Assembly (NCBI GenBank): GCA_037445115.1
Contig: JBBILC010000141.1
Span: forward strand, 1 to 12,558
Direction of reading: 5' to 3'
Length of the DNA stretch: 12,558 nucleotides
Source: Coleofasciculaceae cyanobacterium bin_20
GTDB lineage: Bacteria; Cyanobacteriota; Cyanobacteriia; B231
Part shown: positions 1 through 12,558 of the stretch, in pieces
Position numbering within the stretch: position 1 is the first letter of the stretch
How the letters are laid out: every line of letters starts with the position of its first letter
Notes under the pieces: generated by a model
Told to the model about the DNA's origin: nothing
Seen by the model: only the letters and a program-made list of their open reading frames with translations
Database searches by the model: none
Translations under genes and position numbers: made by a program

Positions 1-1
1 G

Positions 2-29
2 TCCCTCTCCCGTCCTGGGAGAGGGATTT
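2..29 (+). terminator. Perfect 10-bp GC-rich hairpin: tccctctccc (2-11) pairs with gggagaggga (17-26), loop gtcct, followed by ttta. Possible terminator of a gene left of the window, or part of the adjacent repeat element.
   Basis: Inverted repeat read directly from the sequence. The T-tract is only 3 nt, so the terminator call is weak. Confidence 0.25.
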
Positions 30-64
30 AGGGTGAGGTAGCAAAAGTGGGATGCACCCGATCT

Positions 65-181
65 GATGTGCTGGAAGGATCTTGGGGCAATCTAATTTGT
101 TAGAAATGGGCAGGTTTATCTGGATGGCTGGTTTGTGGTCCAGGTTTTGGGACAACCCACCCCTACATTAATGTTTTTGGG
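65..181. repeat. Left copy of a ~100-bp dispersed repeat element (ttggggcaatctaatttgttagaaatgggcaggtttatctggatggctggtttgtggtccaggttttgggacaacccacccctaca...). Direct repeat of 7323-7419.
   Basis: Manual alignment of 82-181 with 7323-7419 gives roughly 80% identity over ~100 bp in the same orientation. Shared blocks are ttggggcaa(t/c)ctaattt(g/t)ttagaaatgg.c.ggtttatc..gatggctggt.tgtggtccag.tttg...caaccc.cccctaca. Confidence 0.75.
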
Positions 182-489
182 CACTTCGAATAATTGCCTT
201 ATTGCGAAAATCAAGCACGCTATACCAGGCCATGCTCAATAAGCACCCCTATTTTTCGATGTGCCCTTATTATGACTAACACGATCGCGGTTAATTACAG
301 GGGTACTCACATCTCTGTCTCTTTTTCGGTGACCAGTAGTCAACCCCCTAATAAGTCCATGCCACAGCAACCTAACGGCAAAAGTGAGCGGCGGCAGATA
401 ACACCGAACACCCACAGATAACCCTTGTGCCGTCCACACCAACGCAATGTTAGCTGGCTCGAGACAAAGACATTGCTGACTCAGAAGCG

Positions 490-512
490 TAAAATAGTAG
501 GAGTAGCAAGGA
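490..512 (+). promoter_or_regulatory. Candidate -10 box TAAAAT (490-495) and Shine-Dalgarno-like aagga (508-512, 8 nt before the ATG at 521) for the antitoxin-toxin operon.
   Basis: Sequence motifs only. No convincing -35 at 17-bp spacing. Confidence 0.3.
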
Positions 513-520
513 ATTTAGCC

Positions 521-766
521 ATGAGCGTCGTTGTCCCTGATGAGATTTTAACCGCAACCCGCATGACTGAGGCTGAAATGCGTCAGGAAATTGCTGTCAT
601 GCTCTTTCAGCGCGAAAAGCTTACCCTTGCTCAAGCCAGTCGTTTTGCAGGAATACATCGTGTTGCCTTTCAACACCTACTCGCTAGTCGCTACATCCCA
701 GTACATTACGGAGTAGAGGATTTCGAGCAGGACATTCAAAATTTGCGGGAGATGGGCAGATTGTGA
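521..766 (+). CDS. UPF0175-family antitoxin, 81 aa (MSVVVPDEILTATRMTEAEMRQEIAVMLFQREKLTLAQASRFAGIHRVAFQHLLASRYIPVHYGVEDFEQDIQNLREMG). The ORF-track start at 425 is probably an upstream extension; the true start is likely the ATG at 521.
   Basis: Typical UPF0175 length and motif pattern (IPDEIL..., SLGKAAELAG-like helix-turn-helix segment, C-terminal EDLxxDLxxL). In-frame ATG at 521 with an RBS-like aagga. Sits immediately upstream of, and overlapping, a DUF3368 gene, which is the canonical pairing. Confidence 0.85.
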   Translation: MSVVVPDEILTATRMTEAEMRQEIAVMLFQREKLTLAQASRFAGIHRVAFQHLLASRYIPVHYGVEDFEQDIQNLREMGRL

Positions 767-1260
767 TTATTGTCAGTGACACATCATCTATCAACAACCT
801 TGCTGCAATCAATCACCTTCATCTTCTTAATCAACTCTATGGAACGGTTTTTATTCCCGAAGCCGTTTATCGAGAATTAACTGACCCAAATTTTCCTGTT
901 GCAGGGGCGACTGAAGTACAAACCTTTGACTGGATTCAAACTCGCGCTGTTAGCGATCGTACCCTTGTCGAAGTACTAAACAACGAACTTGATATTGGAG
1001 AGTCCGAGGCGATTGCCTTAGCCGTGGAGATTCAAGCTGATCAAGTTTTGATTGATGAACGTCGCGGTCGGCTAGTCGCAAGTAGGTTGAGTCTGCGCTA
1101 CATAGGTATCCTAGGAATTTTAGTCGAAGCAAAAAGTCAAGGCTTAATTGGTGGAGTAAAACCTTTATTGGATGCATTGCTTAATGAGGCTGGATTTTGG
1201 GTTGCAGAACCTTTGTACAACAGTGTTTTGCACCTTGTTAATGAGATCGACCTACCTTGA
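763..1260 (+). CDS. DUF3368-family PIN-like putative ribonuclease toxin, 165 aa. GTG start overlapping the antitoxin stop (GTGA at 763-766).
   Basis: The N-terminus MIIVSDTSSINNLAAINHLHLLNQLYGTVFIPEAVYREL matches the DUF3368/PIN-like pattern (hhhhDsSxLI.LakIgrLdLL..L...vhIP.aVy.E). Translational coupling to the UPF0175 gene. Confidence 0.85.
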   Translation: MIIVSDTSSINNLAAINHLHLLNQLYGTVFIPEAVYRELTDPNFPVAGATEVQTFDWIQTRAVSDRTLVEVLNNELDIGESEAIALAVEIQADQVLIDERRGRLVASRLSLRYIGILGILVEAKSQGLIGGVKPLLDALLNEAGFWVAEPLYNSVLHLVNEIDLP

Positions 1261-1509
1261 TCTTTTCTGGGTAACTGGTAAGCGTTTGGGATACTCCGCA
1301 GACAGGATAGAGCGAGATAACGACCAAGCTCACCGGACGCAGATAACTTTTGCCACTCAACCGATCACATTAAGGCGTTCCGGTGCAGCGACTTGTTATA
1401 CCGCTTACTCAGACCGAGTGTGCTCATAGATATTAGAGAGAAACTACTCAACCCTGGATTAGAGCATAGCTTCACGTACTTTAGAGTAGGTCTCATAGTT
1501 ATAAAACAG

Positions 1510-4500
1510 CTATACTGAAACGCTCGGAGAAATAGGCGTCACAAAGTCGTCTCGCATTTGATATGCAGCGGAAGAACCTGTCTCAACAAGCTGGTCGAGA
1601 ATATATAGAACCGCTTCTCGAACGCTACGATTTGATTTAAGTTGAAGCGGTTCCCCATAGACAAAGCGACGAAGCAAGACTTCAAGGTAGTAAGTAGTGG
1701 TCGAATCAGTCAGAGCTTGAGAAGCGTCTCCTGTCTTCAATCGCTCAGCTACCAATGTAAAACTTTTTGGAAGTGCTCTTTCGCCAACATGATAGAGAAA
1801 TCGGCAATAAGCTTTGAATGCAGCCGATGTCGCAGGAATACTTTTCACCAGGTTTTCTATGCGGTTCTCTTGATCCCTGAGACGTGGCCAGTATCGTACT
1901 TTATCTTTCCAGGATATTCCTAATAGTAGTTTACTCAGAAGTTGTGATGCGCTACTCGCCGTCGCATATCGTTCGTCTAACTTGCCATTCCATTTGGCAT
2001 TAGCAAAGTGGTCAGCAAAATTTTGCCAAATCTCCCAGAAGGGAGATTCACGTTCCAACTTATCTTCCTCGTAAATGAGTGCTTCAACAAACTCGCTAAC
2101 TTCCTTTGGATGGGTTTCGACAGATTGAAGGATAGGTTGATAAATTACAATCGCATGCTCAGCATCTAACTTAAGTGCAAATCTAGCGATCTGTTTTGTA
2201 AACCAAAGCTCGAACTCGAAGTCTCTATGATTATTACTATATTGGTCATGGTTATCTCTTTCCCAATCTTGAGTAAGGGCATAAGCTACTCGCTCATATA
2301 TCCTTGCCGCAGACTCGGATGTTGTCAGATAACTCAGTATCTGAAGAATGAAGCGTATCTGAAATCGCACATATCCTTGCAGGGGGTCCAAATTGCGTAA
2401 TTCATTTTCGGCGTCTATCTCTCCAGAAACTATGTCCTTTCTTATCTCTAATGCGGCCCTCTGAAACAACTCATAACCAGAGAGTTGTGCCTCATAGGGC
2501 ATTTCTTGTTGTTTTTCTCTAAGTTCCTCTGCAAGTCGTGCTTGTTTAGCTAAAGCGCCGACATAGCGCATAACAAAGTCAGGCTCAGTCTCTCCCAAGT
2601 AGTATCCCAACCCTGCTGCTGCATACTCTCTGATCTCAGTGACCGAATGGGTAAGGGCAGTAGCTGTTGCAGCAATCAGCACGTCACCAGACTTATCCAC
2701 GCCTAATTTTTGTATAGCGCACGGCAGGGTATAAGCTGCAGAACCGCCACCGCTGCCTCCAAGAACAGCATGGTGATCACTTCCGTCGTGCTTCTCAACT
2801 TCTGCGATTAACCTATCAACACACCAAGAACGATCATCGCTGTTCATTTCATCCCAATAATCTCTTATGCACACTGAAGCTAGCAATCCCGATCCACCTT
2901 GGCTTAAATCAAAAGGATTTTGCGTTTCTTCTCTGCTATCTTGCGCTTCTGAATCATGGAGCTTGGCAAGAGAGAGCATTTCTTGCCAGGACTGTGAATC
3001 ATTATCTAGATTTCTGTCCCAGGCGGCTTGTCCCCAAAGCCAAAGAGAGAGCACTTTTGTATGCTGAGCTTGCTGTTCAGAATTGCTATCGACTATTTCC
3101 TGTACATCCGGCTCTATTGCACCCAAGCTTATAGAGAAGTAGCGTCGCGTATCTTCTTCTGATCCCGATGGTGTTGTGTTGACTGTCACTTCCTCGCCTA
3201 ATTGGAAGCCTCGGACATCCATACGATGAAGCGCCAGCCTCCAGACAAGGTCTCCCTCTGATTGATCTTCCAGAGGTGGCAAATTTGCCCGGTGCTGATC
3301 AATGATTTGCCACACTTCCTCACATCTATCCCCAAGTTGAAGGTTGATCGCAAGGGATTCGAGATTACTCTTTCTATGGGGAAGAGCGCCCGACTCAATT
3401 CGCTCATGGTCATAAGCCTTACCCATAGGCTGCAAGGAGGGCATGAGCTTTTCGATGCTGAAATTATTCGCTTGATCATGAACCATTCGGCTACGGTCAA
3501 GGTCGATAATATCTTGAGTAGAAAGCAGTGCGAGTCCTGCACGACCACACTTGTCTGGATGTGCAATACAAACACTGGCGACAACTGCTGTCACTGCGAC
3601 ATTGTTGCTGTCTTGCAGCAACTTAAGAAGCCAGGACTCAAGATTTACATCCTCAAGCTTAGCGATTTCGAGGAGCCAATGTTCGAGCGCCATCAATGCA
3701 GACTGTAAAACATAAGGAGCTACAGAGGTACCTCGGTATATAGCGTAGAGACGCCCGTTAGCCCACTGTGAGATAGGTTGGCTTTCCTCTGGTATATTCA
3801 GTTCGACTTGCCATGCTGGTTCCAGCGGATCAAATGGCCACTTTTGTTCGCCGTACCAAGAGCAAGCATGGTTTATCAGAGTAGTGATAAAGTCAACACC
3901 GATACGGGGATGCGATCGCAAAAGAGCCCAGAATGGTCCCCGAATAGCACTTGCTGGAACTGAGAATTTGTGTGCTACGTGTTGCCGAATGCCGAAGTGT
4001 GAATCGATATTCAATGACCAGTGGTGGCGATACCCGTGCTCCCGGATTCTCTGAAGATCTTCGTCGGTAAGACAAAAGTAAGACATTGCAAGATCTATGA
4101 TCTCTTCTGGGAAGTCACGACAGGCAAAAGTTCCGCTGCTTTCGGTTAAAAGTAGATCTGCAAAGTCTTTAGCTACGTCATCGTGGTTATTTGCTGATTT
4201 GGCTCGACGCAAGATGTTTCTAAATGTATCAGCAGCAGAGTTTGGTATTTTGGCAAAAATTTCCAGCGCTCGCTTTCTCAAATCCCTTGAGTTATAGCCG
4301 TTTAGATCATCAAGAAGCCGAGCAATGATTTTGCCAGCATCCTTATATCCTTCTGGCTGAGGTTTCCAGTAAGCAACTTGTTGTGACCAGTCTTCTACCA
4401 ATCCCAGAACTATTCCGAAGTGCTCAGGTAGCAATTTTTCTAACTCTTCGCTGACGATTTTTAGTACCGGAGACCAAGCAGTTCCTGTGGGAACAAGAAG

Positions 4501-6639
4501 TTGTGATGTAAGCCCACGTTGATTAGGAAACAAGTCGTGAGCAGTTTTGCAGGCAACGCGAAGTAAATGAATAACACGGATCAACAGTTCTGCATCATGT
4601 GCAAGAAGTACAGCTCCGTTACGAAGCAGAAAGTCATTGGCGGAGGAAGACAGAAGTGTGCATATGATTGTGTCGTCCCGAAAATGGGCCGGAAGAGTGT
4701 CATCTTGGAAAGCAGATAAGATGAAGGTATCTGCACTCTCTAACTCAAGCCTTAGTGCCTCGCCAAGCCACTTTCTATAACCTCGCCGGAGGGCTGGATA
4801 TCCCCCGATATCCTCTGCAAATCCTGCTGCTTCGCCTTCATTAATAACAAATTGACCATGTAGCCAATGTATAGTCGCCCAGTCCTCCAAAACATCATGT
4901 GCAGGAGCAGCTAGTGACTGGCTGTCCTCGGAGAACGCCACCAAGCCATCCCTATGTAAGGCTTCCAACACATTGGCGTCAAAGTTATCACATCGAACAT
5001 ACGGACGAAGTTCTTTAGCCCTTTGTAAAGAAAGCTGCAAGAATACCTGTTCTCTTTTACGAGGCATACCATCAGCAGCATCTACATCAGAGCGGATTAT
5101 CTCACTCCAGCACCTATCTCTAAATTCCTTTTCATTATCCGGTAACTGTCCTTCCGACCAATTAATCCGAGCAGCTATATCTAAAAAATATGGTGAGCGA
5201 ATCAGCTTTTTGAGGTTTGGATTCTGAACCGCTACAGCAATCTGGGGAATTTCTTGCGCGACTTGGTCTAGCTCTTCATCTGTAAAAGGACGAACATCGA
5301 TCAGCTCATATTGGAGAGCGACCTGTTCTAGCAAAGATATTTTTACCGTATCTATGGAGTAGTCACGGCAAGTGAGTATTAAACGAAGATTTTGATCCTG
5401 TCTTACAAGCCGCAAGAGATCCATAAATGCTTTTCGCTCTGACGACTCAAGTAAGCGCTCTACACTCTCGATGAGAATGAACTTTCTCCCTTGAGCCGAT
5501 AATAGACTCAACAATCTGTTTGCTGTCAATGAATCTTGAATCGCTTGTAGAGACTGGTCTATATGGCTACTGGCAAATTCTTCAGCTCGAAAGACTAAAC
5601 AGAAACAGTTCTCTTTAATTTGCTCAACTACGTTTTTTGCTACTGCTGACTTTCCATAACCTGCTGGTCCATTGATGAGAGTGACTTGTGTCGCTTCTAG
5701 TGAATCAAGAATTTTAGTCTCTAGAATCTCTCGCCGAACTTTGATATGACTAGCAATAGTAGTATTGATGCCATCCAGTGTTACTAAACTGTGATCGAGA
5801 AGTTGTCTTAAAAGTCCGCCAGATCGAGGTGCTAAAGCAGAGTGACGTTGACGCAAAACCTCTGGTAGGTTGTTATGTCTATAGCTGCCTGCCGCTGGCA
5901 TTCCGTCAGACCCACCAACTATTTGAAGGAGATCGCTCCAAGTAGATTCTGCTGCTGCAAACGGATCAGGTTCGCTTGAGCAGAAAGCAAGCAGGTTTTT
6001 TGTCCACGCCTCTTGCTGAGCAGTTTTTGTAGTGAGGTCTAAGCTGATTACATGTAGAACACACAAGAAGCGCCAGAAGTCGTCAGCATTAATAGTTGTC
6101 GCAAAACTCTTCTCCAGAATACTTTGGATGGTTTCTGCTTGCTTCCGGGCGGTTTTAGAAAGAAGACCGTCTATTTTAATCCGCCGTTCGAAGTCTGAAC
6201 CATCAACAGAAGCCCGTGCAAAGTCTAATAAGCTGCCAAATTTGTCCAGCAATAAGTTGGTTCCTTGAAGCGTAATGAGAGCGAGTCGATCAGTCTCAGG
6301 GGAGAAGTTGGCCGAATTCTTGAAATCTTGCCAAAAATCAGCAAACGCCTTTTGACACGCATCGTTTTCACTGCTGATAGTGAAACTCCGTTTTACTTGT
6401 GCAGCAAGATGGCGATACTGGCCTCCACCTTTATTGCCTACAACCAATACATCGTCAGTCTGCCAGCCGAGATGCTCAGTCTGAAAATGCACTTCTTCGA
6501 CTTGGCAATCTTTTAAGATAGGGGGAATACCTCTAACAAGCAATAATGCAAGAAACTGTGCTCCAACGTGCTGCTCAAAAAACGTACCGCTTCCGCCTGT
6601 GGCAATCGGACTTGATACTGCTTGCTTTTTGCTACTCAT
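1510..6639 (-). CDS. Giant 1709-aa multidomain protein with three recognisable parts. Residues ~15-90 form an N-terminal Mrr-like PD-(D/E)xK nuclease domain: FE at 21-22, TDD at 61-63, QVK at 81-83. Residues ~310-560 form a central STAND-type P-loop NTPase: Walker A GPAGYGKS at 324-331, Walker B-like FILIESVE at 387-394, sensor-1-like LILTCR at 420-425. The C-terminal ~1150 aa are unassigned and look helical. Candidate Avs/AVAST-like antiphage NLR-like protein.
   Basis: Single uninterrupted ORF of 5130 nt. Nuclease and NTPase motifs were read from the translation; Walker A maps to nt 5647-5670. The nuclease-NTPase-sensor order matches Avs-type antiviral STAND proteins. It lies in a compositionally foreign block next to a TA pair and a recombinase remnant. 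Confidence 0.85.
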   Translation of the reverse strand: MSSKKQAVSSPIATGGSGTFFEQHVGAQFLALLLVRGIPPILKDCQVEEVHFQTEHLGWQTDDVLVVGNKGGGQYRHLAAQVKRSFTISSENDACQKAFADFWQDFKNSANFSPETDRLALITLQGTNLLLDKFGSLLDFARASVDGSDFERRIKIDGLLSKTARKQAETIQSILEKSFATTINADDFWRFLCVLHVISLDLTTKTAQQEAWTKNLLAFCSSEPDPFAAAESTWSDLLQIVGGSDGMPAAGSYRHNNLPEVLRQRHSALAPRSGGLLRQLLDHSLVTLDGINTTIASHIKVRREILETKILDSLEATQVTLINGPAGYGKSAVAKNVVEQIKENCFCLVFRAEEFASSHIDQSLQAIQDSLTANRLLSLLSAQGRKFILIESVERLLESSERKAFMDLLRLVRQDQNLRLILTCRDYSIDTVKISLLEQVALQYELIDVRPFTDEELDQVAQEIPQIAVAVQNPNLKKLIRSPYFLDIAARINWSEGQLPDNEKEFRDRCWSEIIRSDVDAADGMPRKREQVFLQLSLQRAKELRPYVRCDNFDANVLEALHRDGLVAFSEDSQSLAAPAHDVLEDWATIHWLHGQFVINEGEAAGFAEDIGGYPALRRGYRKWLGEALRLELESADTFILSAFQDDTLPAHFRDDTIICTLLSSSANDFLLRNGAVLLAHDAELLIRVIHLLRVACKTAHDLFPNQRGLTSQLLVPTGTAWSPVLKIVSEELEKLLPEHFGIVLGLVEDWSQQVAYWKPQPEGYKDAGKIIARLLDDLNGYNSRDLRKRALEIFAKIPNSAADTFRNILRRAKSANNHDDVAKDFADLLLTESSGTFACRDFPEEIIDLAMSYFCLTDEDLQRIREHGYRHHWSLNIDSHFGIRQHVAHKFSVPASAIRGPFWALLRSHPRIGVDFITTLINHACSWYGEQKWPFDPLEPAWQVELNIPEESQPISQWANGRLYAIYRGTSVAPYVLQSALMALEHWLLEIAKLEDVNLESWLLKLLQDSNNVAVTAVVASVCIAHPDKCGRAGLALLSTQDIIDLDRSRMVHDQANNFSIEKLMPSLQPMGKAYDHERIESGALPHRKSNLESLAINLQLGDRCEEVWQIIDQHRANLPPLEDQSEGDLVWRLALHRMDVRGFQLGEEVTVNTTPSGSEEDTRRYFSISLGAIEPDVQEIVDSNSEQQAQHTKVLSLWLWGQAAWDRNLDNDSQSWQEMLSLAKLHDSEAQDSREETQNPFDLSQGGSGLLASVCIRDYWDEMNSDDRSWCVDRLIAEVEKHDGSDHHAVLGGSGGGSAAYTLPCAIQKLGVDKSGDVLIAATATALTHSVTEIREYAAAGLGYYLGETEPDFVMRYVGALAKQARLAEELREKQQEMPYEAQLSGYELFQRAALEIRKDIVSGEIDAENELRNLDPLQGYVRFQIRFILQILSYLTTSESAARIYERVAYALTQDWERDNHDQYSNNHRDFEFELWFTKQIARFALKLDAEHAIVIYQPILQSVETHPKEVSEFVEALIYEEDKLERESPFWEIWQNFADHFANAKWNGKLDERYATASSASQLLSKLLLGISWKDKVRYWPRLRDQENRIENLVKSIPATSAAFKAYCRFLYHVGERALPKSFTLVAERLKTGDASQALTDSTTTYYLEVLLRRFVYGEPLQLKSNRSVREAVLYILDQLVETGSSAAYQMRDDFVTPISPSVSV

Positions 6640-6850
6640 CAGCGATTTCTATCTAGAGCGTATGGTGTTTGATGTGTTTTGTCTAAGAGCTTCAACTATT
6701 TTAAGCAACCAAGCTGCACCGAGTGATCTTGATGAACTGGTGTGACTCAACAGGTAGGCGGTATAACTATGTATTCAACGTCAGATCTGATGGATAAGCC
6801 CGGATATCAGGATCTTATCATGCAGATCCGCGTGATAATACCTGGTTCTG

Positions 6851-6993
6851 GGGTGTTATTTATCAAAGTTAATGTTTTAAGTCCGAGATTTCAGGGTGTT
6901 ATCCGTCACTTTTGACGTTTAAGTTGGGGAAATTGGGGTGTTATCCGTCACTTTTAAATGATAACACCCGGATTCAGGGTGTTATCCGTCATT
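6851..6993. repeat. Phased array of GGGTGTTAT(C) repeats. Direct copies at 6851-6864 (degenerate: gggtgttatttatc), 6894-6913, 6936-6955 and 6977-6993, spaced 41-43 bp. One inverted copy gataacaccc at 6960-6969 forms a 9-bp inverted repeat with the 6936 copy (GGTGTTATC-14 bp-GATAACACC). Candidate recombinase-binding attI-like site or operator array.
   Basis: Exact 17-20 bp matches read in the sequence (gggtgttatccgtcactttt twice, gggtgttatccgtcatt once). Spacing is about 4 helical turns. Located immediately upstream of the IntI-like fragment and upstream of, and divergent from, the giant minus-strand gene. Confidence 0.8.
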
Positions 6994-6998
6994 GCCTT

Positions 6999-7292
6999 GT
7001 GCTGGACAGTCAGCCACCGCCACCGCCACCCCGCCTGCTGGATCAGGTCAGGCAAGCCATTCGCCTTAAGCACTTCAGCTTAAAGACCAAAAAGTCCTAC
7101 GTTTACTACATCCGCGACTTCATCCTGTTTCACGGCAAACGCCATCCTAAGGACATGGGGGCAGATGAGATCTGGGCCTACCTGGCGCATCTAGCTGTTG
7201 AACGCTCCGTTGCCGCCTCCATGCAAACAGTCGCCCTGAGTGCCTTGCTGTTTCTTTACCGTCAAGTCTTGCAGGGTGATCCCCCCTTTTGT
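6999..7292 (+). pseudogene. Truncated tyrosine recombinase. Only the N-terminal SAM-like/core-binding domain of an integron-integrase (IntI)-like protein is present. Homology stops at ~7290, where the dispersed repeat begins, and the catalytic domain is absent.
   Basis: From memory, the translation LLDQVRQAIRLKHFSLKTKKSYVYYIRDFILFHGKRHPKDMGADEIWAYLAHLAVERSVAASMQTVALSALLFLYRQVLQGD aligns without gaps to the IntI1 N-terminus [82 protein letters not shown]. A proline-rich stretch preceding LDQ is present in both. The likely start is the in-frame GTG at 6999. The ORF-track ATG at 6912 would run through the repeat array. Downstream of 7290 the ORF continues in frame through the repeat element, which I take to be coincidental. 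Confidence 0.7.
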
Positions 7293-7419
7293 TATCGAGA
7301 TAGCTGGTCTGCGGTCCAGATTTTGGGGCAACCTAATTTTTTAGAAATGGACGGGTTTATCGAGATGGCTGGTCTGTGGTCCAGATTTTGCTGCAACCCG
7401 CCCCTACAACAATTTTGGG
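7293..7419. repeat. Right copy of the ~100-bp dispersed repeat (7323-7419), preceded by an internal tandem partial duplication: 7293-7332 atcgagatagctggtctgcggtccagattttggggcaacc is nearly identical to 7359-7398 atcgagatggctggtctgtggtccagattttgctgcaacc.
   Basis: Manual alignment with 65-181 and internal self-alignment. It sits exactly at the boundary between the AT-rich island and HIP1-rich DNA, and abuts the 3' end of the 7440-7922 gene. Confidence 0.75.
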
Positions 7420-7439
7420 TATTCCTGTCGTCGGATGCT

Positions 7440-7922
7440 TTAGAGTTTATAACCAATTTGGCGGAGGAGCGATCGCCGGGATTCAATATCAGCGGGAGCC
7501 TCAACACCCTGCGGTGAGGCTCCATCAATCACACCTAAAATGCCGCGTCCTTGGTTGGTCTCAGCAATAATTACCTGGACGGGATTGGCCGTTGCGCAGT
7601 AGATAGAGCAAACCTCTGGGCACTGTTTAATGCCATTGAGAAAGTTGATGGGATAGGCATCCTTGAGCAGAATAATAAAGCTGTGACCGGCCCCGATCGC
7701 TTGGGCATTGGCGATCGCGGCTGCCTGCAACCCCTCATCATTCCCCACCGCGCGAATTAAACAGGGACCCGATGCCTCGCAAAAGGCTAAACCAAACTTA
7801 ACCTGGGAAGAAGTCCCTACCAAAACTTCATAAAGATCTTCAACAGTTTTAATAAAATGGCTTTGGCCCAGGATGAGATTACTTCCCTCTGGCACGGTGA
7901 GGTCAACGGTGTGAAGTTCCAT
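7440..7922 (-). CDS. 160-aa conserved protein, probably of the adenosine-specific kinase family (PF04008/DUF355-like; typical of cyanobacteria and archaea).
   Basis: Clean 160-aa ORF with native-like composition, including HIP1 sites. The length and motifs (GQSHFIKTVEDL, IGAGHSF, CATANPVQVI, GRGILGV) fit my recollection of that family, which I could not verify. Confidence 0.55.
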   Translation of the reverse strand: MELHTVDLTVPEGSNLILGQSHFIKTVEDLYEVLVGTSSQVKFGLAFCEASGPCLIRAVGNDEGLQAAAIANAQAIGAGHSFIILLKDAYPINFLNGIKQCPEVCSIYCATANPVQVIIAETNQGRGILGVIDGASPQGVEAPADIESRRSLLRQIGYKL

Positions 7923-8033
7923 TGCGAGGTCCTTAATATTATTGGATATTTTATATCAGCATTGTATCCCGGCTTGCTGCTGGACTTTCACCCCCATCTG
8001 CTGGACATAAAAACTGCTTCCTTTGACGCCTCC

Positions 8034-8093
8034 TTGGCCCAGATTTGATCCAGCTTTAATCCAGTTTTGGCCCAGATTTTGGTCCAGATTACA
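8034..8093. repeat. Five short tandem units of ~11 bp (ttggcccagatttga / tccagctttaa / tccagttttgg / cccagattttgg / tccagattaca) in the divergent intergenic region between the 7440-7922 (-) and 8174-10435 (+) genes. They share the core GGTCCAGATTTTGG with the large dispersed repeat.
   Basis: Read directly. The unit consensus is YCCAGNTTTNR. Confidence 0.6.
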
Positions 8094-8173
8094 GTGATCT
8101 TAAATCTGAATAAAGGGCTAGTCCAGCAATGCTAGAGTGGGGGCACATCCTATAACTTGTAAGGCAACGCCTT

Positions 8174-10435
8174 ATGAAACTGATCCAGAGTCCTTTCCGG
8201 TTGACTTCGCTACGGCAATCGCGGAAGGCTGCTCGTGGTTTAGCATCTGTAGCGGTGTCCATGCTGGCAACCGGGGCGATCGCGGCAACGGCTTCTCTGC
8301 CCTCAGCGTTGGCAACCCCAGACCCTACCCCAACCTTGATCCCAACCCAACCCCAAACGCCACTGCGATCGGGTCAGCCAACCCCATCTACCCAACCGAT
8401 CCAACTGGCGCAACCGGCCCCCAGCCCGGTTATTTACCAGATGGGGGTTGGGGATTTTCTCGGTCCACTCTTTGTCACGGGCATCATCATTGTCGGGGGA
8501 GCTATTTTCTTCTCTTCGATTACCGGCCTGGTGATTATTAGTGAACAGGAAGTCGGGATTATCATCAAAAAGTGGGGGGGGCGCCTTACCCCCGGACATT
8601 TGGTTGCCCTACACGGTGAAGCCGGTATCCAGGCCGATACCCTCGTCCCTGGCTGGCATTGGGGCTATTTCCCCTGGCAATATACGGTGCAAAAGCAGCC
8701 CGTGATTGTGGTACCCCAAGGAGAGATCGCGTTAATTGTGGCGAATGATGGGGTGGCGATTCCACCGGAGCGGATTCTGGGGAAAGTCGTCCCCTGTGAC
8801 AACTTTCAAGATGCCCGCAAGTTTCTCTCCAATGGCGGTGAAAAGGGGCGGCAATTGGACTTTCTCACCGCAGGCACCTACCGCATTAACACAGCCCTTT
8901 TCCAGGTAATCACCTCTGGAAACACGGGAAAGCATGGGGTGAGTGCCGATAAACTGCGGGTCTATTCAGTTCAGTCCGATAAGGTGGGCATTGTCACCAC
9001 CCTCGATGGCCAGCCGATCGAGGCCGGGGAAATTGCCGGTCCAACCGTGCCGGGACATAACAATTTCCAGAATGGCGAAAAGTTTATCCGGGCCAATGGT
9101 CGCCGAGGGTTACAGGAGCAAATCCTGCTGTCCGGTTCCTGGAACTTGAATCCCTGGTTTGCGCAGGTGGAGCAGGTCCCGATGACGGAAATTCCGATCG
9201 GCTATGTGGGCGTTGTGATCTCCTTTGTGGGGAAAGCCCATGAAGATGTCAGTGGTGCGTCCTTTACCCACGGCGATTTGGTCGAGCCAGGGCATAAGGG
9301 CGTTTGGACGGAACCGCTCTATCCCGGTAAGCATCCGATTAACATCCGGGTGATGAAGGTGGAATTGGTGCCCACGACCAATATTGTGCTGAACTGGTCT
9401 GCCCGTACCGAGCGCCATAATTACGATCAAAAACTGGAATCCTTGCAGGTGCGATCGCGGGATGGGTTTGCCTTTGATCTGGAAATTGCCCAGATTATCC
9501 ATGTTGGGGCGTTAGATGCACCTAAGGTGATTTCCCGTGTGGGGTCAATGCAAAATCTGGTGGATCATGTATTAGAACCCACGATCGGTAACTATTTCCG
9601 CAACTCGGCCCAGGATTATACGGTGCTCGACTTTTTGAGTGCTCGGAGTGAGCGGCAAGCGGAAGCGGCTGAATATATTAAAGCCGCCCTGCGTAGCTAC
9701 GATGTGCAAGCGATCGACACGCTGATTGGTGAGATTCAACCTCCCGCCGAACTCATGAAAACCCAGACCGAGCGGAAGATTGCCGAAGAACAGCGCAAGA
9801 CGTTTGAAATGCAACAACAGGCCCAAACCCAGCGACAACAGTTGGTGCGGGAAACGGCCCTCGCCGACATCCAACAGGAGATGGTGAAGTCGGAACAGAG
9901 TGTCAAAATCGCGGCATTGCAAGCCCAAGCCCAGATCAAACAATCGGAAGGACAAGCCGAATCGATCAAATTGCGGGCTGTGGCCGATGCTGAATCCATT
10001 CGGGCTACGGGTCGGGCAAGGGCGGAAAGCTATCATGCTGGGGTACAGGCCCTCGGTGAAAAGGGCTATACCGCAATGCAACTGATGCAGATTATTGGCG
10101 ATCATCAGGTGCGGCTGATTCCCGATGTGTTGGTGGGCAGTAGTAGCAGTGGCAGTCTGGTGGATGGCCTACTCTCGATGATTCTTTGGAACCAGGCGGG
10201 GAAAACACCGGGTAATGGGGGGACACCGCTACCCTCACCGCTACCGTCGCCATCCGACAAGCAACCCTTCAATGGCGTCGCATCGCCGCCGCCCCCTCCT
10301 GCTGCGCCACAGTCGGCCTCACTACCGGCCCCACGACCTGTACCGCCACCGGCCCCACTGCCTGCGCCCCCGCCTGTGCCCCCGCGATCGGTCACTACGG
10401 GTACTGCGTCCCCCGATGACCCCTTTACGTCCTGA
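8174..10435 (+). CDS. SPFH/band-7 flotillin-like membrane protein, 753 aa. The N-terminal signal-like segment is followed by a Pro/Thr-rich linker and a hydrophobic hairpin/TM (FLGPLFVTGIIIVGGAIFFSSITGLVII). Next come the SPFH domain, a Gln/Ala/Glu-rich coiled-coil EA-repeat region, and a C-terminal proline-rich tail.
   Basis: EQEVGIIIKKWGG...LVPGWHW...QPVIVVP resembles the flotillin N-terminal SPFH entry motif. The long AEEQRK...QAQAQIKQSEGQAESIKLRAVADAESIRA coiled-coil is typical of bacterial FloT-like proteins. RBS-like aagg before the ATG. HIP1 sites lie within. Confidence 0.75.
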   Translation: MKLIQSPFRLTSLRQSRKAARGLASVAVSMLATGAIAATASLPSALATPDPTPTLIPTQPQTPLRSGQPTPSTQPIQLAQPAPSPVIYQMGVGDFLGPLFVTGIIIVGGAIFFSSITGLVIISEQEVGIIIKKWGGRLTPGHLVALHGEAGIQADTLVPGWHWGYFPWQYTVQKQPVIVVPQGEIALIVANDGVAIPPERILGKVVPCDNFQDARKFLSNGGEKGRQLDFLTAGTYRINTALFQVITSGNTGKHGVSADKLRVYSVQSDKVGIVTTLDGQPIEAGEIAGPTVPGHNNFQNGEKFIRANGRRGLQEQILLSGSWNLNPWFAQVEQVPMTEIPIGYVGVVISFVGKAHEDVSGASFTHGDLVEPGHKGVWTEPLYPGKHPINIRVMKVELVPTTNIVLNWSARTERHNYDQKLESLQVRSRDGFAFDLEIAQIIHVGALDAPKVISRVGSMQNLVDHVLEPTIGNYFRNSAQDYTVLDFLSARSERQAEAAEYIKAALRSYDVQAIDTLIGEIQPPAELMKTQTERKIAEEQRKTFEMQQQAQTQRQQLVRETALADIQQEMVKSEQSVKIAALQAQAQIKQSEGQAESIKLRAVADAESIRATGRARAESYHAGVQALGEKGYTAMQLMQIIGDHQVRLIPDVLVGSSSSGSLVDGLLSMILWNQAGKTPGNGGTPLPSPLPSPSDKQPFNGVASPPPPPAAPQSASLPAPRPVPPPAPLPAPPPVPPRSVTTGTASPDDPFTS

Positions 10436-10475
10436 TGGCGAGGAGATGACCCTTTTACGTCCTGATGGCGAGGAG
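10416..10475. repeat. Perfect-but-one 30-bp tandem duplication (atgacccctttacgtcctgatggcgaggag / atgacccttttacgtcctgatggcgaggag) straddling the stop codon (TGA 10433-10435) of the flotillin-like gene.
   Basis: Read directly; a single mismatch between units. Confidence 0.85.
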
Positions 10476-10511
10476 GCGTCGATTTAGATAGGTGAGATAT
10501 GCTACACCGTT

Positions 10512-10552
10512 AGGAGTCGGAATGCTTGTCCCATTTTGACTCCTCTTTTTTT
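10512..10552 (+). terminator. Candidate rho-independent terminator: stem aggagtc (10512-10518) pairs with gactcct (10538-10544), followed by c + T7 (10545-10552). Downstream of the flotillin-like gene.
   Basis: Inverted repeat plus a 7-T run. The loop is long (19 nt) and could have additional internal pairing. Confidence 0.45.
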
Positions 10553-10603
10553 GTAAGGCTAGGCTTAGCGCGAAAAGTGGGATGATCAAATCCTATGTGA
10601 ACC

Positions 10604-10640
10604 TTGACGATCGCAGGTCTTGCGAATAGTTTGCGAATAT
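10604..10640 (+). promoter_or_regulatory. Candidate sigma70-type promoter for the kinase gene. The -35 is TTGACG (10604-10609), the spacer is 17 bp, and the -10 is TAGTTT (10627-10632). A direct repeat ttgcgaata x2 (10620-10628, 10631-10639) lies over it and could be an operator.
   Basis: Motif spacing only. The leader to the ATG at 10648 would be very short. Confidence 0.3.
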
Positions 10641-10647
10641 CCTATCG

Positions 10648-12519
10648 ATGTCCTATTGCTTTAATCCTGACTGTCCGCAGCCCCAGAATCCCGATGGAAT
10701 TACCCACTGTCAGCAGTGTGGCTGGGCATTGCAATTGCAGGATCGCTATCAAGCGATTAGGTTACTGGGTCAGGGCGGATTTGGGCGCACCTTGCTGGCG
10801 ATCGCGGCTCCAAATGCCACCGATCGCGAACCGTCCGCCTGTGTGATTAAGCAGTTTTTACCCCAGCCCCTCCGTGCGAATCACCAAGACAGGGCACGCA
10901 CCCTGTTTCACCAGGAAGCCCAACGCTTGGCAGAATTAGGCCAGCATCCCCAAATTCCTGATTTTTTCGATTTTTTCCAGGCGGGTGAACAGCTTTATTT
11001 AGTTCAAGAATATATTGCGGGGGTTACCTTAGCGGAGCAACTCGCGACCCAAGGGGTGTTCACAGAAGCCCAAATTTGGCAAGTATTGACTGACCTGTTA
11101 CCCGTCCTCAAGTTTATCCACGATCGCCAGGTGATCCATCGCGATATTAAACCCGAAAATATCATTCGCCCGGTTGCAAACGAGTTAGCCAACGAGTTAG
11201 GCAATAACGCCCCCCTGGTCCTGGTTGATTTTGGCTCTGCCAAGGTGGTTACCCCGATCGCCCAGTTACAAACGGGAACCACGATCGGCAGTGCTGAATA
11301 CGTTGCCCCCGAACAGGCGCGGGGAAAGGCGGTCTTTGCCAGTGATCTCTACAGTTTGGGGGTGACCTGTATTCACCTGCTCACGGGATTGTCTCCCTTT
11401 GATTTGGTAGATAGTGGGCATAATACGTGGGTTTGGCAACAATTTTTGACCACGCCCGTTAGCCCAGAACTGGGTCAAATGCTCGATCGCCTTATTCACC
11501 CAGCCCTAGACCAGCGATTCCCATCCGCAGATGCTGTGATGCAGGCCATGTCGGGATTTGCTCTGATCAATCCCAAGGACGCTCGTAGCCAGAAGTCCCG
11601 CGATCGTGCCTTATCTCAGGCATTGCCGATCAACCTTTCCTGCCCTTGTGAATCTATCCTCCGTGGACATACGGCAGCAGTCAATACCGTAGCAGTCAAT
11701 ACCGTTGCGATGGGTTCTGAGGAGCCATTAATCGTGAGTGGGGGGCAGGATAAAGTGATGCGATTTTGGAACCTAAAAACAGGACAGCCCCTCCAATATT
11801 TCTCTTTGGAGACCCCCATTTTGTCGGTAGCCTTTAGTGCAGATGGGAAACGTTTGGCCGCAGCCGGTCAAGATAACAGGGTGCGCGTATGGTTAGTAGA
11901 AACGCTCCAAGCGTCTTTAACATTAGCTGAACATACCCAATTAGCAGGACATACCCAGGCCGTAAAAGCGATCGCCTTTCATCCGCAATATCCCATTTTA
12001 GCCAGTGGTAGCCGTGATAAAACGATTCGGATTTGGCAGGTTCAGACGAGGGAACTGGTCGCAACCCTGACCCAGCATCGGTTAGCCGTCAATACCCTCG
12101 CCTTTAGCCCGGATGGGGCTTGGTTGGCCAGTGGGGGCAGCGATCACCGGGTTTGTCTGTGGCGCGTTCATGGCGAGGCGGGTAAACCCAGGCTCACCCA
12201 CCACAAAACGTTGACCGATCATGTCGATAGCGTGTTGGCCGTTGCTTTTAGCCCCGATAGCCAAACGTTGGCAACGGGGGGAGACGATCGCACGATTAAA
12301 CTCTGGGATGTGGCGCAGGGTCACCTTCAGCAAACCCTATCGGCCCACTCCTGGTCGGTTTCTGCCCTCAGTTTTAGTCCCATTACAAGCTGTTCATCTG
12401 CCTCTACAGAAAAGCCTTTTTTAATCAGTGGCGGGTGGGATGGGTTACTGAAATTGTGGCCGATCGCGCATACGGAGATACAACCGGCGGCTTTGAGCCT
12501 ATCGGGCCAGAAGTGTTGA
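10648..12519 (+). CDS. Ser/Thr protein kinase, 623 aa, with three parts. An N-terminal zinc-ribbon has the pattern CFNPDC...HCQQCG. The Hanks-type kinase domain carries GQGGFG, VIKQF, HRDIKPENII, DFGSAK and YVAPE. The C-terminal WD40 beta-propeller has repeats ending RFWN, RVWL, IRIWQ, VCLWR, IKLWD and LKLWP.
   Basis: All canonical kinase subdomain motifs are present in order. Multiple WD repeats with GH...WD-like spacing. This architecture is common among cyanobacterial Ser/Thr kinases. Confidence 0.9.
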   Translation: MSYCFNPDCPQPQNPDGITHCQQCGWALQLQDRYQAIRLLGQGGFGRTLLAIAAPNATDREPSACVIKQFLPQPLRANHQDRARTLFHQEAQRLAELGQHPQIPDFFDFFQAGEQLYLVQEYIAGVTLAEQLATQGVFTEAQIWQVLTDLLPVLKFIHDRQVIHRDIKPENIIRPVANELANELGNNAPLVLVDFGSAKVVTPIAQLQTGTTIGSAEYVAPEQARGKAVFASDLYSLGVTCIHLLTGLSPFDLVDSGHNTWVWQQFLTTPVSPELGQMLDRLIHPALDQRFPSADAVMQAMSGFALINPKDARSQKSRDRALSQALPINLSCPCESILRGHTAAVNTVAVNTVAMGSEEPLIVSGGQDKVMRFWNLKTGQPLQYFSLETPILSVAFSADGKRLAAAGQDNRVRVWLVETLQASLTLAEHTQLAGHTQAVKAIAFHPQYPILASGSRDKTIRIWQVQTRELVATLTQHRLAVNTLAFSPDGAWLASGGSDHRVCLWRVHGEAGKPRLTHHKTLTDHVDSVLAVAFSPDSQTLATGGDDRTIKLWDVAQGHLQQTLSAHSWSVSALSFSPITSCSSASTEKPFLISGGWDGLLKLWPIAHTEIQPAALSLSGQKC

Positions 12520-12558
12520 ATCTTAAGATTTTATTTTCTAAAAATAGACACACTAATC

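Follow-up and report, generated by a model that had tools for sequence, protein, structure and literature searches.

attI is the least understood part of integrons. In class 1 integrons, attI1 is a 65-bp region with L and R boxes plus two direct repeats, DR1 and DR2 (PMC8946536, PMC3146285); the integrase IntI1 binds L, R, DR1 and DR2 (PMC12901181, PMC3146285) in a cooperative manner (PMC2668188), and DR1 and DR2, bound by IntI1, favour attI x attC recombination (PMC3146285, PMC12901181, PMC8946536). The attIA site of Vibrio cholerae and most environmental attI sites, in turn, are described as being without accessory repeats (PMC8946536, PMC3146285). Integrons in cyanobacteria have already been documented (PMC2426708), about one third of genomic intI genes have turned into pseudogenes, genomes with several intI are common (PMC2426708, PMC4889954), and IntegronFinder annotates attI for classes 1–3 only (PMC4889954). 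Here we describe a repeat array in a 12,558-bp stretch of DNA (the window) from Coleofasciculaceae cyanobacterium bin_20 (assembly GCA_037445115.1, contig JBBILC010000141.1, positions 1 to 12,558, forward strand). That the locus belongs to an integron is almost certain. Taken as a whole, the array is quite probably the attI region (6767–6998, + strand) of a cyanobacterial chromosomal integron with a truncated integrase gene, its boxes being phased sites for IntI.

Like attI1, this region lies between intI and the first cassette, has a crossover point of the form G|TTRRRY and carries extra GTTA boxes between the simple site and intI. Unlike attI1 (65 bp, two direct repeats), it extends over 232 bp with up to ten half-sites in addition to the L arm; its half-sites alternate in orientation, form five palindromic dyads and keep a strict 42-bp period, the sequence similarity does not go beyond the GTTA core, and binding by IntI is predicted for it. 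It resembles attIA in being the attI of a chromosomal integron, with a lineage-specific sequence that is conserved within the lineage, and departs from it by having accessory repeats, the largest set among the attI sites compared in this analysis. With regard to degenerate integrons (intI pseudogenes and CALIN arrays), the window is ordinary, since here too the cassettes and attC sites are kept beside a truncated intI. As an integron the locus is an ordinary member, and as an attI it is a new and much expanded variant, 232 bp long and with as many as ten phased half-sites. A literature search that was incomplete found no description of a multi-dyad attI phased at 42 bp, so that an earlier description is possible.

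The array had been noticed earlier as four same-orientation copies of GGGTGTTATC accompanied by an inverted copy. These are present as described: the forward copies start on the + strand at 6851 (one mismatch, reading GGGTGTTATT and ending in TTATT) and, with exact matches, at 6894, 6936 and 6977, with spacings of 43, 42 and 41 bp, and the inverted copy (- strand, 6960–6969) lies 14 bp past the third one, giving GGTGTTATC-N14-GATAACACC. The array is also not random, as had been claimed, since the window holds six matches to GGGTGTTATC with at most one mismatch compared to 0.52 expected, a number reached in none of 200 dinucleotide shuffles (the sixth match, 397–406, falls outside the array and within an attC site, attC-a). 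Likewise, the array sits between two divergent genes, one at 1510–6639 (- strand) and an open reading frame (ORF) from a GTG at 6999 (+ strand). The earlier note had covered part of the structure only: a second palindrome, GATAATACC-N8-GGGTGTTAT, is found at 6834–6859 and further boxes go back to 6779.

The real repeat unit is a half-site of about 25 nt with the consensus GGGGTGTTATCCGTCACTTTTGACG. Half-site orientation alternates in steps of 19 and 23 bp, which results in a 42-bp period, about four helical turns. Scored with a 25-nt position weight matrix (PWM) and with offsets counted from 6767, the window shows half-site 1 CCGGGCTTATCCATCAGATCTGACG (6779–6803, - strand, +30, 27.1 bits), half-site 2 AGGATCTTATCATGCAGATCCGCGT (6809–6833, + strand, +48, 16.0 bits), half-site 3 CAGGTATTATCACGCGGATCTGCAT (6820–6844, - strand, +71, 16.7 bits) and half-site 4 GGGGTGTTATTTATCAAAGTTAATG (6850–6874, + strand, +89, 12.9 bits), the latter being the first of the four copies noticed earlier. 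The second and third copies are half-site 6 AGGGTGTTATCCGTCACTTTTGACG (6893–6917, + strand, +132, 32.8 bits) and half-site 8 GGGGTGTTATCCGTCACTTTTAAAT (6935–6959, + strand, +174, 26.2 bits), the inverted copy is half-site 9 CGGGTGTTATCATTTAAAAGTGACG (6946–6970, - strand, +197, 18.7 bits), and the fourth is half-site 10 AGGGTGTTATCCGTCATTGCCTTGT (6976–7000, + strand, +215, 15.0 bits), which abuts the intI start codon. Two degenerate half-sites on the - strand complete the series: half-site 5 (about 6862–6886, near +113, with TTAAA), partner of half-site 6, and half-site 7 (about 6904–6928, near +155), partner of half-site 8. Head-to-head pairs form dyads of the type GGATAACACCC-N7/8-GGGTGTTATCC with the GTCA tails on the outside, and five such palindromic dyads (TGACGGATAACACCC-N7-GGGTGTTATCCGTCA) lie between the crossover point and the intI start codon; tail-to-tail pairs form the palindrome CGTCA-N4-TGACG. 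When the window is cut into 42-bp rows from the junction, six rows fall in register, the first of them being the L arm (TATGTATTCAACGTCA, 6768–6783, + strand) of the attI simple site. This arm opens the 42-bp family as a degenerate member and is in register with the inner boxes.

The left limit of the region is the crossover point itself. Homology of the window to other loci starts sharply at 6760–6767 (6764–6767 for about 20 loci), after an AAC; to the left of this boundary the sequence is different in every locus, yet it always reads G|TTRRRY on the opposite strand (GTTATAC in the window; GTTAGGC, GTTAGAC, GTTATGC and GTTAGCT elsewhere). Mean column identity, calculated over 13 loci, falls across the boundary from 0.98 (junction TAAC) and 0.90 (L arm) on the inside to 0.53 in the cassette flank. 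In the window the junction (6761–6767, - strand) reads G|TTATAC on the cassette strand with the crossover between 6767 and 6766, so that 6761–6766 belong to cassette 1. The other half of a cassette's own attC supplies its first bases behind the attI G, which must therefore be complementary to the R'' box of that attC. This is what is found: the boundary 7-mer GTATAAC (over 10 nt, GCGGTATAAC) recurs unchanged as the R'' end of cassette 1's own attC site, attC-b, at 1395–1404. Among the 19 loci where the comparison could be made, the junction 7-mer equals the R'' of the nearest detected attC at 7/7 positions in 15 and at 6/7 in three (the matches are often 8–12 nt long); in the one locus where it fails, an attC other than the first was probably detected. 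All six loci with an intact intI pass. On sequence grounds, 6766|6767 is thereby proven to be an attI x attC junction.

The cassette side of the locus agrees with this. The site attC-b (1315–1401, - strand) has its R'' GTATAAC at 1401–1395 and its R' GTTATCT at 1321–1315, and its + strand folds as a single-stranded DNA hairpin (z = -3.15, equalled by none of 200 shuffles). A second site, attC-a (370–455, - strand; R'' AGCTAAC, R' GTTAGGT), is the attC of cassette 2. Both attC-like sites of the window are 86–87 nt long and resemble the textbook attC (GCCTAAC...GTTAGGC) of L038, a locus of filamentous cyanobacterium CCP2; the likeness of attC-a to this independent attC amounts to 79% mean column identity in a three-sequence alignment. 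Covariance-model matches for attC were found in nearly every locus of the module, all of them on the cassette side and on the strand opposite to intI.

On the array's opposite side, the ORF at 6999–7292 (+ strand, GTG start at 6999) corresponds to a truncated integron integrase gene, delta-intI, which keeps residues ~1–94 of 322. Its sole Pfam match is PF13495, the N-terminal SAM-like domain of tyrosine recombinases (90 bits), and its best NCBIfam match is TIGR02249, positions 1–81 (86 bits, which is lower than the cutoff of 265 because delta-intI is truncated). It is 82% identical to residues 8–94 of the intact IntI encoded in L038 beside the same repeats. The L038 protein obtains 484.7 bits on TIGR02249 (cutoff 265) over profile positions 1–313 of 315 and shows 54% identity over 327 aa with the class 1 IntI1. 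Homology stops at 7292, and no remnant of the catalytic domain or C-terminal part of intI was found anywhere in the window. Judged from what is left of its reading frame, the integrase of the window is dead, truncated at codon 94, and in consequence the attI would act only with IntI supplied in trans and would otherwise be a relic; its local importance is historical unless IntI acts in this way.

Since the best 120 homologues of the 6999–7292 ORF are all of 78–170 aa, a stand-alone family of SAM-domain DNA-binding proteins was considered; it was rejected because the short homologues end at scattered points of the canonical IntI and many intact IntI exist. A split integrase gene of the SSV type or a miniature non-autonomous element was also rejected, as neither a second end nor a C-terminal half was found. 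A short local repeat, partly duplicated and resembling a miniature inverted-repeat transposable element (7292–7416, + strand), begins exactly where the intI homology ends. This structured repeat of about 100 bp (GGGGCAAYCTAATTT...GGCTGGTYTGTGGTCCAG...CCCCTACA) occurs twice in the window, the second copy being at 78–175, and within the 7292 copy positions 7292–7333 resemble 7357–7398; no copy was found in any of the loci compared. The repeat at 7292 may mark the event that truncated the integrase. An adenosine kinase gene (7440–7922, - strand) follows delta-intI.

The distribution of the array was followed by a scan for the 16-mer GGGTGTTATCCGTCAC in one genome per species (596 Gb). More than 115 loci matched, about the number expected by chance, and some 24 of them are cyanobacterial. 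Seven matches in Nostoc and Chroococcales (L021, L022, L027, L069, L081, L113 and L108) belong to one unrelated conserved gene, while sixteen loci are part of a conserved module, about 240 bp long, which runs from AAC|TATRTATTCAMCGTCA up to the start codon of the integrase. The sources of these sixteen are Egbenema (three loci), CCP2 (four), Elainella, Microcoleus, several Leptolyngbya and metagenome-assembled genomes. A dispersed short repeat, which the earlier note had named as the finding that would overturn its reading, was rejected: outside the unrelated gene, all multi-copy cyanobacterial matches are the same phased module, in sixteen loci beside intI remnants, and the others are single chance or coding matches. 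Conservation of the spacing had also been proposed as a check, and the half-site offsets turned out to be near-invariant in about 20 homologous loci (Egbenema, Elainella, Leptolyngbya, Microcoleus, Chroococcidiopsis, Synechococcus elongatus and metagenome-assembled genomes). Matrix matches across the modules are located at +30(-), +49(+), +72(-), +91(+), +114(-), +133(+), +156(-), +175(+), +198(-) and +216(+); at +114 and +156, the - strand half-sites often carry TTAAC instead of TTATC and are degenerate (TTAAA) in the window. Within the array, mean column identity is 0.87 in half-site heads, 0.81 in half-site tails, 0.80 in tail-to-tail centres and 0.70 in head-to-head centres.

Searching with the complete IntI sequence turned up many intact integron integrases of cyanobacteria, at 70–100% identity, many of which are named integron integrase by their source. 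Loci with an intact intI carry the lattice as well: L205 shows all ten positions, and L209 and L204 (Chroococcidiopsis) are similar. The number of units varies from 2 to 6, and the array is shorter in L036 (-42 bp), in L116 of Synechococcus elongatus (-84 bp) and in L038 (-62 bp, with an intact intI). The half-site matrix gave only 0–1 matches each upstream of 80 metagenomic IntI relatives (58–70% identity), so the box sequence is specific to the clade. Several IntI relatives and more divergent cyanobacteria nevertheless have arrays of their own with a similar period and other boxes: L124 and also L119, the latter of Acaryochloris (boxes GTTATACGACA, period 39–40 bp), the metagenomic L128 (380–460, 57% G+C, intact IntI at 66% identity; ATTAGACGGAA-N-TTCCGTATAAT, 40 bp) and L133 (440–650, intact IntI at 66% identity; AGACAGA...CGTCTGCCTA, 41/81 bp), L206 of Oscillatoria (42 bp), L207 of Pseudanabaena (about 41 bp) and L208 of Pleurocapsa (40–41 bp). 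The phased-dyad design of attI may, with L128 and L133, extend beyond cyanobacteria. For L206 and L208, the repeat finder on its own put the L arm in register as the leading copy, and the L arm and the inner boxes change together in six lineages (CCGTCA, ACGACA, ACCGCC/ACCGCA, ACCGTAG/ACCGCAG, AGACGGAA/TGCGGAA and a mixture in L206).

The integron identity of the locus, the crossover point, the lattice and its conservation are thus read directly from these comparisons; what follows on the binding of IntI and its consequences is inferred from them. IntI has to recognise the recombination core, to which the L arm belongs, and intI is the sole constant companion of the module, which makes IntI the most economical candidate for binding the boxes, and the covariation of the boxes with the crossover-proximal L arm in diverged lineages also suggests binding by IntI. 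We therefore hold it fairly likely that the boxes are accessory binding sites of the integrase. The earlier note had regarded the phasing as characteristic of cooperative protein binding, and both protein binding and cooperativity at the boxes are likewise inferred here. It had further named recombinase accessory sites, iterons and a repressor operator array as examples, and had seen in the array the likely control or recombination hub of the island. The recombination hub stands, given the attI region, its crossover point and the adjacent truncated intI, and the iteron label does not, as there is no replication gene and the module is always accompanied by intI and attC cassettes.

How the array might work can be outlined as follows. 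The GGGTGTTATC boxes are paralogues of the L arm, repeated every 42 bp in alternating orientation, and would be bound by IntI as double-stranded DNA, comparable in this to DR1 and DR2 of attI1 and exceeding them about fivefold in number; their core GTTATCC resembles the GTTRRRY core as well as DR2 (GTTATGG) and DR1 (GTTACGC) of attI1. The phasing would line up IntI protomers along a single DNA face, which might raise the local integrase concentration beside the crossover point and shape the DNA for capture of the folded attC. Additionally, the array reaches the intI start codon and could exert feedback on the transcription of intI and of the cassettes; as the last box abuts the start codon, its occupancy should also affect intI expression. 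Each head-to-head dyad would resemble the cores of loxP, FRT and dif, in which inverted arms of 10–15 bp surround a centre of 7–8 bp, and the array as a whole recalls the lambda attP intasome, with its many recombinase sites beside the crossover. To our knowledge, and unlike the situation in lambda attP, IntI has no separate arm-binding domain and no accessory bending protein is known here; the lack of an arm-binding domain would make the extra sites core-type. Unlike in loxP, FRT, dif and attP, strand exchange in the window is documented at the outermost unit only. A bolder proposal, which we put forward only tentatively, is an attI intasome in cyanobacterial integrons and some of their relatives: five tandem palindromic core-like sites with a 40–42 bp period would hold up to ten IntI protomers on one DNA face, and this complex, and not host factors, would control cassette capture, use the outermost unit as the only exchange site and autoregulate intI together with expression of the first cassette. 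If this were true, the number of units would be an evolvable dial for integron activity. The existence of 2 to 6 units and of lineage-specific box variants offers in any case a natural series on what accessory integrase sites do.

Several points weigh against IntI binding at the boxes and, in part, against the attI assignment. The geometry of the inner dyads is unlike that of the active site: an 11-bp shift of the R box was derived from the half-site offsets, and the idea that the inner five dyads are exact equivalents of the active site was rejected because the R-box TAAC lies 11 bp nearer to the L arm than a regular - strand half-site. The PWM scanned over the modules took TTATC as its anchor, which by itself makes five of its columns conserved, and the contrast between heads (0.87) and head-to-head centres (0.70) is modest because the loci are related. 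Unit number is variable, so some of the units are dispensable. Part of the conservation and covariation could be due to common ancestry or to concerted evolution among tandem repeats and not to selection for binding. On the cassette side, the covariance model was built from three attC sequences, two of them from the window, which makes its E-values rough, and attC-a shows no hairpin by minimum free energy and is recognised by sequence similarity alone. Finally, the tail-to-tail palindromes, with 10-bp arms and a 4-bp centre, would suit a dimeric helix-turn-helix protein.

This last point leads to the alternative that survives best, although we consider it unlikely: the boxes would be an operator array for a host transcription factor, a dimer of which would occupy the palindromes formed tail to tail (TTATCCGTCA-N4-TGACGGATAA) and govern the divergent promoters of intI and the cassettes, in the manner of LexA in many proteobacterial integrons. 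Indeed, the array spans the entire 5' region of intI up to the start codon, and LexA regulates the integrase in other integron classes, the cyanobacterial LexA motif being different (PMC3108266). Among the genes, however, intI is the sole one to go with the module in all cases, while the cassettes differ in every locus, and a single host factor does not predict the covariation of boxes and L arm in six lineages, including L128 with its 57% G+C. A scan for sigma-70-type promoters gave nothing above chance. The cyanobacterial LexA-type box RGTACNNNDGTWCB is absent from 6767–6998 at up to one mismatch, and in the whole window it occurs at chance level (5 matches compared to 2.9 expected).

Quite unlikely, and somewhat more so, is that the attI core was duplicated in tandem by slippage or unequal exchange, giving units without a function of their own that concerted evolution keeps alike. 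Variation in unit number (3 to 6 rows) would fit, particularly as some of the changes are exact multiples of 42 bp (L036, -42; L116, -84), and so would the shortened array of L038, the first locus found with an intact intI, and the degeneration of several half-sites in the window. Neutral repeats would nonetheless be expected to lose phase and orientation, whereas offsets, orientation and a 40–42 bp period are kept across genera and across fully diverged boxes, the half-site heads are more conserved than the dyad centres, and L205 and L209 have the full array beside intact integrases. The end of another mobile element (sub-terminal transposase sites of the Tn7-like type or attP arm sites) or plasmid or phage iterons at an origin can be dismissed as highly improbable. 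The phased repeats at a sharp homology boundary and the multiple copies in a genome (Egbenema has three, CCP2 four) give a superficial likeness, and against it stand the integron integrase as adjoining gene, a boundary that passes the integron-specific attI x attC junction test, attC-bounded cassettes on the expected side and strand, the absence of any matching inverted end in the window and of transposase, replication-initiator or Rep-type domains in the flanking ORFs, and, for iterons, repeats that alternate in orientation instead of being direct.

With the attI region of an integron as the preferred reading, the conserved signature becomes a marker for integron platforms and solo attI sites in cyanobacterial genomes, and it gives exact cassette boundaries. 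In the window, cassette 1 (1321–6766, - strand, 5446 bp), its ends set by attC-b and the junction, carries an Avs4-type gene: the ORF at 1510–6639 (- strand) encodes a 1709-aa antiviral STAND NTPase with nSTAND Pfam matches, which obtains 607 bits against the PADLOC Avs4 profile over positions 165–1569 of 1570. Thanks to these boundaries, large defence genes can be placed at the first cassette position, namely Avs4 (5.4 kb) in the window and, in Pleurocapsa, a restriction-modification pair. Small cassettes are usual in integrons, and the defence systems within them have been called 'streamlined' (bioRxiv 10.1101/2024.07.02.601686); a 1709-aa Avs4 in a first cassette of 5.4 kb is unusually large. 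The first cassette of Pleurocapsa PCC 7327 (L208, 176–2702) is 2.6 kb long and encodes a XamI-type restriction enzyme and an Eco57I-type methylase, with an exact match between junction and R'', and that of Pseudanabaena PCC 6802 (L207, 1691–2623) encodes a protein with a Mrr_cat domain, so that the first cassettes of these other cyanobacterial integrons also look like defence genes.

Cassette 2 (376–1320, - strand, 945 bp) carries a UPF0175/DUF3368 pair by Pfam, on the + strand at 425–766 and 763–1260; its 5' end, TTATCTCGCTC, matches the R'' of attC-a at 10 of 12 positions, and beyond 375 a third cassette begins. The toxin-antitoxin-like UPF0175/DUF3368 pair is inverse to the orientation of the array, as is typical of toxin-antitoxin cassettes in chromosomal integrons, and such cassettes also occur in L038 and L204 (PIN plus antitoxin, BrnT/BrnA). 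The attC sites of this lineage have an internal GTTATCT/AGATAAC at the base of the variable loop (397–406 in attC-a, 1337–1343 in attC-b, and in the attC of L038); in attC-a the motif reads GATAACACC, which is the core of the attI boxes, and may reflect either recognition by the integrase or a lineage-specific homogeneity of attC sites.

At the crossover point, a -10-like TATAGT was seen by eye to straddle the junction in many loci (cassette strand TGAATATATAG|TT), its last T coming from the cassette; the window has a weaker CATAGT at this position (6757–6770). Such a hexamer could be part of a promoter into the first cassette. In the chromosome of Egbenema sp., two of the three attI modules are without intI (L049, about 1748–1954, and L109, about 2899–3105). 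Both continue after the last box with the same unrelated sequence (CAACCTCGATCGCGCCAGTAAATTTGTA...) and are still followed by attC sites, which suggests either 'solo attI' platforms that arose by duplication or an insertion or deletion common to both. Within the window, no relevant Rfam family was matched. Elsewhere in the window, tandem repeats of 24 bp (two copies) and 30 bp (two copies, 97% identical) are present at 10324–10474, around the 3' end of an SPFH/Band 7 gene (8174–10435).

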